From assembly GCA_964016885.1 (NCBI GenBank), contig OZ024763.1:24800001-24864000 (forward strand): DNA of 64,000 bases, written 5' to 3'. Positions 2,999-60,356 of the stretch are shown here, one piece after another (position 1 is the stretch's first letter; each line of letters opens with the position of its first letter). The notes under the pieces are model-generated. The model had not been told where the DNA came from. It saw nothing but the letters and a program-made list of their open reading frames with translations, and made no database searches. The stretch is from Eledone cirrhosa. Lineage: Eukaryota. The translations under genes and the position numbers were made by a program.

Positions 2999-3064
2999 TA
3001 TTTTATTATATATATTTCAGAGGTACTGTGTTGTTTCCTCAGTACGTCCTCATCAGATAAAATA
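2999..3064 (-). ncRNA. Type I hammerhead ribozyme-like motif, family A
   Basis: Minus strand: TATTTTAT-CTGATGA-GGACGTACTG..CAGTACCTCT-GAA-ATATATAT-A-ATAAAATA. Confidence 0.8.
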
Positions 3065-3152
3065 AATTGATTTCTAACACACCTCAACTGTGCTGATGGT
3101 CAATTCCAGTCTTTTAACCATCAGCTCAATTGAGGTATTTCAGACATCAATT

Positions 3153-3218
3153 TATTTCATCTGATGAGGACGTACTGGGGAGACAGCACAGTACCTCTGA
3201 AATGTATATAATAAAATA
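3153..3218 (+). ncRNA. Type I hammerhead ribozyme-like motif, family A
   Basis: TATTTCAT-CTGATGA-GGACGTACTG..CAGTACCTCT-GAA-ATGTATAT-A-ATAAAATA; inverted partner of 2999-3064. Confidence 0.75.
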
Positions 3219-4570
3219 TATTTGATCAAATCAATGTCTATATTTATTAATATTTTGAAATAATATTAATAACTCCAGAAAACTTCACTGTTGAGTGCTT
3301 CTAATCTATTGTAAAACTATATTCATTGATTAATCAATGAACCTTGTTTAACGTTTGGTTATATATACATACACACATATATATATATATATATATATAT
3401 ATATATATATATATGTGTGTGTGTGTGTGTGTGTGTGTGTGTGTGTGTGTGTGTGTGTATATTTTATCACCGTCCACATTTCAGTGTCAAACACATCAGT
3501 CGACCCAGTGTTTCCTCCTTGTAATGTCCTCCAACATCTTAAACCCTTCTGGTGAATAAAATAAATGTGTATTATTATTATTAATAATATATTTCCCTTG
3601 TTATTTTTATAATAAGAGTAGGCCATCTTTTATCTAGAGGCTGCGTGCAAAATTCATATATATTGTGCCAACGATTCTTCCTACACAAACACACAAACTC
3701 ACGTATATATATATGTAAGGACACACACAAACATATATATATACATGTGTATATATAAATATGTATTTATATATATATATATATATAAATATAAATATAT
3801 ATATATATATATATATATATATATATATATATATATATATATATATAAATATATATATATATATATATATAAATATATATATATATATATATATATATAT
3901 ATATATATATATATATATATATAAATATATATATATATATATATATATATATATATATATATATATATATAAATATATATATATATATATATATATATAA
4001 ATATATATATATAAATATATATATATATATATATATATATATATATATGTATATATACACATCACATGATTACCCCAGGCAATACCACTAGGACCAACGC
4101 CACCACACACCAACAACACCACCACCACCACCAACACCACCAATACCACCACTCCTGACTATAAAAACATGAGCAAACAGCAATAATGAAAACTTTCCCT
4201 CCATACTCCGCTCACACCCAACAATGGCCGAACACTATAAAAAAAGAGAAGAGAGACAATAATAATAATAATAATAATAATGATAATGATAATAATAATG
4301 ATAATGATAATAATAATAATAATAATAATAATAACAATAATGATTTCATTTATTAGCCACAAGGGCCGACATGTAGGGGACAATACAATAATCAATAATA
4401 ATAATAACAATAATAATAATAATAAACGTAAAGAAAATAAGAATGAAGAGAGAGGCAGGCGGACGGACAGAGAAGAGGGGGGAAAAAGTAAAACTTAAAA
4501 AACAAAAACTAAGTCAGACATTCGAATACTACATTACAATGAAACTTATGCTTATTCATTTTTGGGGCCC

Positions 4571-7500
4571 TTTCTGCCCGTGTGTTTGTTTGTTTATGTG
4601 TGTCCGTATACAGCGTGGTGATAATGCCACACAAGGGCCAAGTGGGATGGCGGATCCACAGATGGCTATGTAAACATACATTCGCCAATCCTCGATAAGA
4701 GTGTTTAAATATCGAACATAAACAGTTCGAATAACGGTGAAATGGAGACTAGAACGTCATGTGACAGACTCTCACCCAACAGGTGCCCCCTGGCTCAGCA
4801 GCAGGAACCTGACTGTCAACGAAATACTGCTGATGTTGGAGGAAGAAGAAGAAGGAAAGGGGCCAGAACCAACTGGACGAAAGAATTGAATAGAACTGTT
4901 ATGCAATGCTACCTGAAAAGTAACCCCAAGGAGAGGGGCTACAGGAGACGGATGCATAACATCTGGAACGAGATTGGTTTATTTAAATTAGATGAACAAA
5001 AATTGGCCGGGCAGGCTCGGGTAATAAGAACTAATGGGTGGATAAGCGAGCTGGAACTGGAGGAACTGAGCAGAGAGAATGGCTTGGAGATGGCGGGTGT
5101 AGTATGCCAGACAAGCGAGCCGGCGGGAAATGAAGGTGAGGAGGTCCTGAGAGCGGAGGAACCACCCGAAGCAGACAATGATCTGAATACTGAGATAAAT
5201 AATACCTGGAACAGAGATACGGCCACTGAGGAGATGAATGCTGACGGGCTAGGACAAGATTCGGTTGACATCCTAAATTTAGTGGTAGATGAGTTGAACA
5301 ATGATAGTGGGAGACCTATGAACCTAAGATTTGTAGACAGGAAAAAGTTAAAAGAAACAACAGCTAAGGTAAACAAAGTCATCCCATACCTTGAGGCGAG
5401 GAGTCTTCACCAGTGCAACAATATCCTCAAAGCAACAGCAAATACGGTGAGGAAACTACTTGGTATAAAAGCGAGAGGAAACAACAGACAAGAAAGAGCA
5501 GAGCCGTGGTGGAAGAAGCGACTGAGTGGGCAAATCGGGGAAATGAGAAATGACATAGGAAAGCTTGAGTCACTACTGAATGGGACACTAAAAAACATAG
5601 GCACTAAAAATAGACTGGAAATAAAATACAAAACTAGGAGTAAAAAGCTAAATATTATCATAGAGGAATTGAAGCAACGCATTGTAGCAAAGAGTGCCAA
5701 AATCAGGCGATACGAGAACAGAGTCAGTCAGTATAAACAGAACCGCATGTTCGACAACAACCAGAAGATGCTGTTTGGACAGCTTGAGGGGAAAGAAAGA
5801 GGCACCGACTTGATCCCTGGGGCGGAACAAGCTAAAACATTCTGGAGAGGAATATGGGAGCAGGATGTTAGACACAATGCCCAGGCAGGGTGGATTGAGA
5901 CAGTACAGAGGGAGATCGGTGAGCAGGCACAGCAACAGACTGATTTGAGTATCACAGTTGAAACTCTTAAGGGGCAAGCCAAAAAACTAACCAACTGGAA
6001 ATCACCAGGCCCAGATGGTGTGCAGGGGTATTGGATTAAACATTTAACATCCCTCCACCCGAAGCTGACGGCCATGTTCAATGACTGCTTGGTGTCGGGT
6101 GAGGTGCCAGAGTGGTTGACAAAAGGTACCACAGTTCTGATAATGAAAGACCGAATCAAGGGTAATGATGTTACCAACTATAGACCTATCACATGTCTGC
6201 CCGTAATGTGGAAACTGTTGACGAGCATTGTGTCTGAGGAAATCTACCATCACCTCCACACAAACAACTTGTTGCCGGACGAACAGAAAGGATGCCGAAA
6301 GAAGTCACGTGGTACAAAGGACCAGTTGCTTATTGATAAGATGGTAATGGGGAATTGCAGGAGGAGACACACTGATCTTGCCATGGGATGGATAGACTAC
6401 AGAAAGGCATTTGACATGGTGCCTCATTCCTGGATCACCAAAAGCCTGGAGATCTTCAGGGTGGCAGATAACATCAGAGAGTTGCTGGGCAGGAGTATGG
6501 GGTCCTGGGAGACAGAGTTGACATCAACTGGAGTATCCTTGGGAAGCGTGAAGATCAAGAGAGGTATCTTCCAGGGAGATAGCCTGTCCCCTCTGTTGTT
6601 TGTCCTTGCCCTGATGCCCTTGACCATTATGCTGCGAAAAGTGAGAGCAGGATACAAGTTGGGAAGGGGAGAGCTTACCATCAATCACCTCCTCTTCATG
6701 GACGATCTTAAGCTCTTCGGGAAAAGTGAGAAGGAGTTGGATGTGCTTGTTGACACTGTCCGTATTTTCAGCAGTGATATATGTATGCAGTTTGGTATTG
6801 GTAAATGTGGAGTCATTGTGATGAGGAGGGGTAGGTTGAGCAGAAGTAACGGGATCCAGATACCAACAGGTGAGATGATAAAGGAAATTGACTCTGAGGA
6901 AGGATACAAGTATTTGGGCGTTCTGGAGGCTGATGGCATAAAGAACAAAAAAATGAAGGAATTGTTAAGAACTGAATACATTCGGAGAGTAAGGAGCGTA
7001 TTGAAGTCACATCTGAACAGCAGAAATGCCATAAGCGCAGTAAATTCCCGAGCTGTGTCTATTATTAGGTACAGTGCGGGAATTCTGAGATGGAATGTTG
7101 CTGAACAAAAAGAAATGGATAGGAAGACTAGGAAGCTATTGACTATCTACAACATGTTCCACAAGAGGAGTGATGTCGATAGACTCTACCTAAGGAGATC
7201 TGAGGGTGGAAGAGGTCTTATCAGCATAGAGGACTGTGTTCAGATGGAGAAAAACAACCTATACAAATACGTGACCTATAGTAAGGAGCCAATGCTCAGA
7301 GCTGTACTGAAGGAGGGGAGAGTAGGCCAGGGGATACCCAAGGAGGAAATAACATCAAGGAGGAAGAGCAGCCTTAAGGGAAAATCCCTTCATAGTACCT
7401 TCTTTGAGAAAACTGAATTTAGAGATCCACAGACATGGAACTGGTTGAGAAGAGGAGACCTCAAAAAGGCTACAGAAGGAATGCTAATGGCTGCGCAGGA

Positions 7501-59764: not shown

Positions 59765-59800
59765 TCTTAACGTTTCGAACACTAATCTGTCATCAGAATA
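59765..59800 (-). ncRNA. Minimal hammerhead-like motif, family C
   Basis: Minus strand: TATT-CTGATGA-CAGATTAGTGTTC-GAA-ACGT-T-AAGA. Confidence 0.6.
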
Positions 59801-60045
59801 TAGAACCAGAAATATAAAAATGAAATTAAAAAGTAGTGTTGAAAGGGAAGAACGGAACGGAATATTTGGTGTGTATCCAATCAGCCATATATATATATAT
59901 ATATATATATATATGCAAAAGTTCTATTTAAAATTGTTGGGATACAACAAGTAAATATTTTTATAACGGATATAAAGCACTCGACAAGTATTTGGAGTAG
60001 ATATACGATATTAATAAATGGAAACTATATTTATAAAACCATATT

Positions 60046-60110
60046 TATTTCATTATACATATTTCAGGAATACCAAATTAAATTATGGTGTGCCTTCATC
60101 AGACAAAATA
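60046..60110 (-). ncRNA. Type I hammerhead ribozyme-like motif, family A
   Basis: Near reverse complement of 60292-60356. Confidence 0.75.
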
Positions 60111-60291
60111 CAATATATAACAGTTTTACAAATAAGCTTTGACGTACCCTTTTAAAATGCAACCATTATTTTTGTAACACTATGACTTATTAAAATAATA
60201 TAAACAACTCACTATCCGGATGGCTTCCAAAAATAATGCTTGCATTTTAAAAGGGTACGTCAAAGCTTATTTGTAAAACTGTTATATATTG

Positions 60292-60356
60292 TATTTTGTC
60301 TGATGAAGGCATACCATAATTTAATTTGGTATCCCTGAAATATGTATAATGAAATA
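60292..60356 (+). ncRNA. Type I hammerhead ribozyme-like motif, family A
   Basis: TATTTTGT-CTGATGA-AGGCATACCA..TGGTATCCCT-GAA-ATATGTAT-A-ATGAAATA. Confidence 0.8.

Follow-up and report, generated by a model that had tools for sequence, protein, structure and literature searches.

A stretch of 64,000 nucleotides of the Eledone cirrhosa genome (GCA_964016885.1, contig OZ024763.1, positions 24,800,001 to 24,864,000, forward strand; hereafter the window) contains several hammerhead-ribozyme motifs in which the eight nucleotides that follow the GAA of the core, the stem/loop III, vary from copy to copy and still read as palindromes. This raises the question of whether the symmetry is maintained by selection and, if so, for what kind of pairing. 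An earlier note on this DNA had taken the variation among six window copies as covariation that implies selection on structure. Those six copies prove little, whereas a comparison of subfamilies across the genome supports selection on stem III pairing at the level of the source elements. From this comparison we consider it quite probable that these motifs represent type I hammerhead folds, located in terminal repeats of a Penelope-like element (PLE) with Hydra-type motifs, and that their 8-nt stem III pairs with that of a second copy in a dimer that cuts.

Hammerheads in the terminal repeats of a Penelope-like element

Eight cores in the window fit the pattern CTGAYGA-N24-50-GAAAT-RYRY-ATA, against none in 100 shuffles, and all eight, as well as the 33 genomic representatives described below, show the features of a type I core (CUGANGA ... 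GAAA, an A15.1-U16.1 pair and a non-G at position 17). A search of the 3.0 Gb genome with stem I and core fixed, and the six inner positions of the 8-mer left free, gave 54,353 matches versus 0 in the control, and the genome total exceeds 65,000 pattern matches. In the loci fetched, the motif is in sense orientation and follows, after about 0.9-1.9 kb, an open reading frame (ORF) of ~810-820 aa, and in L045, L046, L048 and L049 a second copy in the same orientation stands upstream of the ORF, at a spacing of 3334-3940 nt; such direct repeats, 3.3-3.9 kb apart, could pair in cis.

The ORF (P0001) contains the motifs RRLRW, SDKTNNLY, FDITMG..D, YRDDG, CNCRIKNKC, YFG..FK.R...H, CNLC and CLH, which are kept in 25 homologues and, compared by eye, match Hydra-1_Obim motif by motif. 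Hydra-clade PLEs are defined by RW, DKT, CxCx5C, CxxC and CxH motifs (Craig et al. 2021, PMC8557442), and the traits found here include RW(K) and DKT in the N-terminal region of the reverse transcriptase (RT), a CxCx5C linker, a C-terminal GIY-YIG-type endonuclease with CxxC and CxH, insertion into (TA)n, an inverted 5'-truncated arm and a tail on one side. A Pfam search with three PLE ORFs yielded nothing significant. Judged by its ORF motifs, this is a Penelope-like retrotransposon of the Hydra clade, and the hammerheads are its 3' ends (pseudo-long terminal repeats, pLTRs).

Among the first 100 copies listed, neighbours within 6 kb are divergent in 23 cases, direct in 8 and convergent in 6; 2 same-strand neighbours are less than 500 nt away, and no short tandem hammerhead units occur in the window. 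In 34 of 50 inverted pairs a tail was detected on one arm only, in 15 on no arm and in 1 on both arms, with probes that fit three subfamilies only. The tail corresponds in L048 to the beginning of the 5' untranslated region, with the ATG about 215 nt beyond the predicted cut, and inserted ends run past the predicted cleavage site. ORF hits were obtained near 32 of 232 copies, mostly on an inverted arm.

Stem III pairing between subfamilies

The comparison was based on 33 representatives, each a real copy that stands for one subfamily and carries its majority 8-mer. The core is invariant in all 33, core positions being also fixed by the search patterns. The 8-mer occurs in 10 sequence types and is fully pairable in 32 of the 33. 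Pair 2-7 is UA in 30 representatives and CG in 3, pair 3-6 is AU in 20, GC in 12 and GU in 1, and pair 4-5 is UA in 14, UG in 10, AU in 4, CG in 4 and unpaired in 1, with change on both sides at all three. Altogether 99.2% of stem III cells are paired, a score reached by none of 500 shuffles. With the inner pairs alone the paired fraction is 98.5% and covariation is 0.97, compared with at most 0.55 in controls with slid partners, and again no shuffle of 500 reaches the score; the counts of pairs and of types that are robust to relatedness are not significant with two pairs (387 and 220 of 500). Stem I, which the sister-family patterns left unfixed, has 87.4% of its cells paired and two-sided change at 6 of 6 pairs.

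In order to handle relatedness, a tree of the representatives was built without the 8-mer. On this tree positions 2-7 need 24 changes, and 32 of the 33 tips are paired. Neutral simulations, run with an equal number of changes, gave at least 32 paired tips in 0 of 4000 runs with kappa 2 and 4, and in 1 of 4000 with transitions only, under each of two roots. Placing the 12 G3-C6 rows in a single clade was rejected (p-AU 0.003), which means that the switch at 3-6 happened more than once.

For stem II, the distal pairs listed in the earlier note are present, but the helix, which it described as fully replaced yet paired, is discontinuous. It pairs at positions 2, 3, 5 and 6, the second position holding a purine-pyrimidine pair in 33 of 33 representatives and the first being paired in 21 (G-C in 3; U/U flanks are also seen in published Hydra motifs), while position 4 is unpaired in 31 of 33 and carries C in at least 90%. 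In the alignment (columns 21 and 74) this conserved C faces C or U while its neighbours covary, and it may possibly take part in a tertiary contact.

Decay of inserted copies

Changes among the inserted copies are of another kind. T-RYRY-A 8-mers make up 52,732 of the 54,353 strict matches, the main types being ATGCGCAT (19,966), ATATATAT (10,219) and ATATGTAT (at most 21,282, by subtraction). Classes that break a pair are rare and scattered over subfamilies (338 matches for A3xC6, 454 for C4xA5), and the double-transversion class Y3/R6 has 1 match. CpG decay leads to ATGTGCAT, which keeps pairing, in 448 matches and to ATGCACAT, which breaks it, in about 395, the latter number being derived from 87 of 100 matches listed. 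Similarly, ATGTATAT has 25 matches, and the pair-breaking ATATACAT about 27, from 8 of 100 matches listed out of 338. Thus ATGTATAT, found in the copy at 3153 and previously read as one of the selected variants, occurs at the same rate as a pair-breaking type and far below the 10,219 matches of ATATATAT; it is ordinary sporadic decay. Inserted copies decay neutrally, without regard to pairing, and selection does not act there; the evidence for selection lies between subfamilies.

Rare 8-mer variants, pair-breaking ones included, are sometimes common to both arms of an insertion (L052/L053, L083/L084, L092/L093, L104/L105, L107/L108 and others). Such sharing accounts for 4 pairs per 100 matches listed in each of the A3xC6 and C4xA5 classes, and for 2 in the 25 matches of ATGTATAT, and it suggests that the arms had a mutant template in common or that conversion took place between them. 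If they had a template in common, a broken palindrome would not block a single insertion.

Sister families

A search with stem I unconstrained and clade A excluded gave 12,593 matches versus 61 in the control. These sister families have in common the core, a length of 8 nt and the A at the cleavage site, and their types include ATGATCAT (5,413), ATGTRCAT (444) and ATGTTCAT (619). The stem II mismatch is common to the B, C and E groups and absent from D. For an older family, the search of which left the centre free, the 100 matches listed of 296 were counted by hand and gave GTGC in 45, GTAC in 30, ATAT in 8, GTAT in 5, GTGT in 3, GCGC in 2 and ATGC in 2, with five singletons. A search for the AC..GT families gave 155 matches, the 100 listed including ACAATTGT (71), ACGATTGT (8) and ACATGTGT (4); no Hydra ORF remnant was found for these families. 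In 20 fetched regions, the search for an autonomous ORF belonging to the sister families found none. In the case of the ATGATCAT family, locus L224 (560-4700) has about 1.3 kb of shared upstream sequence and direct copies 3.1 kb apart, with no ORF of at least 110 aa between them, and the family is likely a non-autonomous derivative present in thousands of copies.

A loose search allowing other bases at positions 2 and 7 gave 1,234 matches versus 3,276 in the control, that is, at or below control, and stem I had at least 4 bp in only 2 of the 30 loci fetched. The repeated cores ACAGCAGT and ACAGTTCT do not have a type I stem I and were rejected as family members. Loci L150, L159, L165, L166 and L171-L173 carry a repeated CTGATGA GCAA...TTGC GAA ACAGCA(G/T)T with a paired stem II and no type I stem I; this family may represent another hammerhead topology.

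Probable pairing between two copies and alternative explanations

Within one molecule, pair 3-6 would close a loop of 2 nt and pair 4-5 no loop at all, so both can form only between molecules or between distant repeats, and from the constraint on these two pairs we infer an intermolecular helix of 8 bp. Moreover, G-U occurs in 4 of the 10 types and A-C in none; since the two are equivalent in double-stranded DNA, the constraint appears to act on the sense-strand RNA. According to the energy predictions, the monomer 2-bp stem III hairpin costs +2.4 to +4.7 kcal/mol and is less stable than the open form in 32 of 33 representatives, self-duplexes gain -1.8 to -10.5 kcal/mol, and the constrained dimer lies below two monomer hammerheads in 33 of 33.

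Such a dimer would most likely join the two repeats, upstream and downstream, of a single transcript, or else two transcripts. Cutting after UA would free an RNA of unit length, with its 5' end about 215 nt ahead of the start codon, perhaps so that it can circularise, and selection would act on source elements that keep transposing. A bolder proposal, which we put forward as a doubtful one, is that the 8-bp duplex clamps the two repeats of one transcript, and that purifying selection preserves it in all lineages that transpose. In that case the hammerhead dimer would not be a passenger but would take a working part in Penelope-type transposition; by offering two templates to the two-strand cut, it would account for the frequent insertions with two outward 3' ends and a tail on just one of them.

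Several points weigh against the pairing of two copies. The 33 representatives were chosen by hand, with D2 and E1 resting on 8 and 4 of 100 matches listed; 13 of 30 inner branches of the tree are well supported, and long branches are present. The core clade alone, with three main types, offers one two-sided event (ATATRTAT to ATGCGCAT), which is weak. The AC..GT families were searched for after a first sighting in the loose 8-mer search, and the link of the sister families to Hydra ORFs consists of weak upstream endonuclease remnants at 2 loci (scores 27, 24 and 17.5). The subfamily ATGTTCAT, a real one with 619 matches, has an unpairable U-U centre, so the claim that stem III always stays self-complementary does not extend to it. 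In terms of energy, the active dimer lies below two free minimum free energy folds in 23 of 33 representatives, equals them in 1 and lies above them in 9, unconstrained cofolds are lower than the active dimer in 32 of 33, and stability does not predict abundance, since ATATGTAT (-2.2 kcal/mol) is common and ATGTATAT (-3.2 kcal/mol) rare in clade A. Competing folds and low unaided activity are likely on these predictions, and low unaided activity is reported for other PLE hammerheads (PMC4209133; PMC11167929). Finally, hammerhead mutants of PAc are described as having no effect on in vitro insertion (Frangieh 2024, PMC11167929).

The PAc mutants also speak for the alternative that survives best, in which the 8-mer is mainly an RNA-RNA coupling site that joins two repeats or two transcripts in the ribonucleoprotein, and cleavage is slow, protein-dependent or secondary. 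In the PAc experiments, as that paper describes them, the hammerhead needs protein in order to cleave, reads ending at the site are absent, and the protein acts on both strands, which it cuts and extends (PMC11167929); in the present element inserted ends extend beyond the predicted cleavage site, with 23 divergent pairs among the 100 copies listed and a tail on one arm in 34 of 50 pairs. We nevertheless regard coupling as an unlikely main function, because stems I and II have been retained along with the core, U16.1 and the A at the cleavage site in families of tens of thousands of copies, and such conservation exceeds what coupling needs.

We give still less credit to a hammerhead acting as a monomer, its stem III being 2 bp long and its loop 4 nt, with a loop symmetry that would be a by-product of AT-rich alternation and few mutational events. 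The three main 8-mers of the core clade are indeed related by transitions, purine-pyrimidine alternation makes partners slid by +/-2 pair in 87.9%, and one U-U subfamily exists. However, transition-only simulations reach the observed pairing in 1 of 4000 runs, palindromes that do not alternate exist (ATGATCAT, 5,413 matches; ACAATTGT, 71 of 100 listed), and the monomer stem III is unfavourable at the energies given above. A DNA-level cause of the symmetry, either a binding site for a dimeric protein or the correction of quasi-palindromes by template switching, has in its favour that 6 of the 10 types are five perfect DNA palindromes plus the U-U type and that arm-shared rare variants imply some homogenising or shared-template process, but it is scarcely credible, being already disfavoured by the strand asymmetry (four G-U sense-strand types are common, with ATATGTAT up to 21,282 matches, and A-C types are absent), and the 8-mer sequence itself is not conserved, unlike a binding site.

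Hammerhead copies in the window

Six of the eight window cores form three inverted arm pairs on opposite strands with their 3' ends outward. In the insertion at 2963-3266, the left arm has a hammerhead of the GGACGTACTG subfamily at 2999..3064 (- strand, core 3007-3056), with ATATATAT at 3008-3015 and predicted cleavage 3' of A3007, and the right arm one at 3153..3218 (+, core 3161-3210), with ATGTATAT at 3202-3209; the two arms are identical at 128 of 141 positions. In the inverted insertion that starts at 18630, both hammerheads carry ATATGTAT, in the left arm at 18679..18744 (-, core 18687-18736) and in the right arm, which has a tail extension to about 19055, at 18859..18924 (+, core 18867-18916), with identity of 160/162. 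The insertion at about 59915-60404 likewise has ATATGTAT in both, with 175/180 identity between a left arm with tail (60046..60110, -, core 60054-60102) and a right arm (60292..60356, +, core 60300-60348) that is 96-97% identical to the ORF-bearing locus L037.

In the insertion at 49815, the left arm carries a hammerhead with ATGCGCAT at 49859..49929 (-, core 49867-49921), of the subfamily of the ORF-bearing loci L045, L046 and L048 (94-98% identical). Its right arm (49988..50137, +, truncated core 49988-50060) is 5'-truncated and without CUGAUGA, but keeps the 3' half of stem II, GAA, ATGCGCAT at 49999-50006, the stem I strand and the tail. The last core, at 53602..53682 (-, core 53610-53674), carries ATATGTAT and a stem II domain of 46 nt; its stem I is AGTCGC/GTGGTT, it belongs to a separate, older family with 46 genome matches (33 of them with ATATGTAT), and it had no match among 15 loci tested for ORF linkage. 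Identity to ORF-bearing loci is 94-98% for the insertions at 18630, 49815 and 59915, and the one at 2960 is linked to an ORF solely via L111, near which lies an ORF fragment with 50% identity. A Hydra profile search found no ORF within the 64-kb window.

As regards the earlier note, its six 8-mers read as given and each is followed by A on checking the sequence, but it had overlooked the cores at 18687-18736 (-) and 60054-60102 (-) and the truncated one at 49988-50060 (+). It had also placed its copies in one family, but the copy at 53604 is of another; since the arms are paired within single insertions, the window amounts to five insertions and not to six independent samples. The stem I pairings that it listed are present; stem I of the 3161 copy contains a C x A mismatch (TTTCAT/ATAAAA), and that of the 53604 copy is a different one. 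The fit to dimeric cleavage holds as far as a dimer-type stem III is concerned, but the paired window copies, being inverted and on opposite strands, cannot pair in cis as a tandem dimer. A transcript through such an insertion would contain one arm in sense and the other in antisense, and the fold predicted for it is a long hairpin, so that these 5'-truncated inverted copies are likely inactive. In Rfam searches, the window had no hit that reached gathering score, and two loci together with window 49500-50400 matched no hammerhead family at E up to 10, which speaks neither for nor against hammerhead identity.

A decayed copy with a CTGAGGA core and a stem III reading AATATATA G lies at 1896..1960 (+); it resembles a sister family by eye and is probably inactive. 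Within the (TA)n tract there is a second, inverted copy of the 3' end of the 2963 arm (2516-2540, + / 2972-2996, -), which is a rearrangement or an assembly artefact.

Other features of the window

A second family of short hammerhead-like motifs ending in CGAAACKTTAA is found at 21843-21872 (-), 52388-52417 (-), 59767-59796 (-) and 49650-49680 (+), with three exact matches versus 0 in shuffles and a fourth that has CTGGTGA. At 50222-50292 (+) there is another hammerhead-like sequence with a perfect 10-nt palindrome, ACTAATTAGT, a 6-bp stem I and a long stem II domain. A short inverted repeat, GGGGAGGGTCAT...ATGACCCTCCCC, at 52556-52675 looks by eye like a miniature inverted-repeat transposable element. 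Simple repeats dominated the repeat search of the window, in which long CAC/CCA-rich minisatellite arrays occupy 10300-12300 and 42000-45600, the second with units of ~59 nt.

At 4709-8134 (+) an open frame of 1141 aa has an RVT_1 domain (E 8.6e-23), a weak zf-RVT hit and a C-terminal CxxC and RPDL, and we take it to be a restriction-enzyme-like non-LTR element of the R4/NeSL type. This RT ORF was rejected as host of the hammerheads, because of its position behind microsatellites and because the ORFs to which the hammerheads map are of Hydra type and lie elsewhere.

Comparison with known systems

Our literature searches, in open-licence text, found no paper on this 8-mer family. As described in parts of Craig et al. 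(PMC8557442), Hydra-clade PLEs share with the present element the C-terminal endonuclease, the (TA)n insertion, the inverted 5'-truncated arm, the one-sided tail and a sense hammerhead near the 3' end. The hammerheads listed there have a stem/loop III of 9-10 nt starting with AC (Hydra-1_oBim acca-a-tggt) and mostly a short stem II, whereas the present family has an even 8-mer, mostly with an AT start, and its stem II is long, position 4 being a C x Y mismatch. The unit of 3.3-3.9 kb also differs from the generally <3 kb of Hydra elements, and the present element is a different family from Hydra-1_Obim.

The PLE dimer hammerheads, in the passages of Cervera and De la Pena (2014, PMC4209133) that treat them, are alike in having a type I fold in both flanking repeats, a palindromic stem/loop III, thousands of solo copies, opposite-strand pairs 100-700 bp apart, a long or bulged helix II and low predicted monomer activity. 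In contrast, the G10.1-C11.1 pair next to the core is not conserved here, and the minimal hammerheads of that work lack helix III, while all copies here have an 8-nt stem/loop III, with a predicted dimer helix of 8 bp. With this, and with a stem II domain of 26-58 nt, the term "minimal" applied by the earlier note does not suit the family. Non-LTR retrozymes (bioRxiv 10.64898/2026.07.22.740005), in the parts consulted, similarly have type I hammerheads derived from PLE pLTRs, and the ATGATCAT sister family resembles them in looking non-coding in the loci examined; they differ in forming short tandem arrays, as opposed to the solo or inverted ends of an ORF-coding element seen here.

It has been suggested that PLE hammerheads may simply parasitise the elements (Craig 2021, PMC8557442), and the present results bear on whether they matter for transposition, since the keeping of pairs at the source level would be comparative evidence of selection for a dimer helix during transposition. 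The natural series of 8-mers, from the weak U-U to the strong GCGC, together with the ORF-bearing loci, constitutes ready material for a test.

The whole layout is thus the published PLE layout, and the dimer idea itself is not new, dimer behaviour of PLE hammerheads being described in PMC4209133 and in the review PMC6765202. The even 8-mer and the long stem II interrupted by C x Y are a new family form, within known variation. For repeat-type hammerheads with palindromic stem/loop III, Perreault et al. (2011, PMC3088659, Fig. S8) state that most variants of stem III/loop III would permit dimer pairing, and their passages on these hammerheads contain no split of source-level change from copy decay; what is added here, as far as sequence comparison can tell, is that distinction between neutral decay of the copies and pair-keeping changes of their sources.

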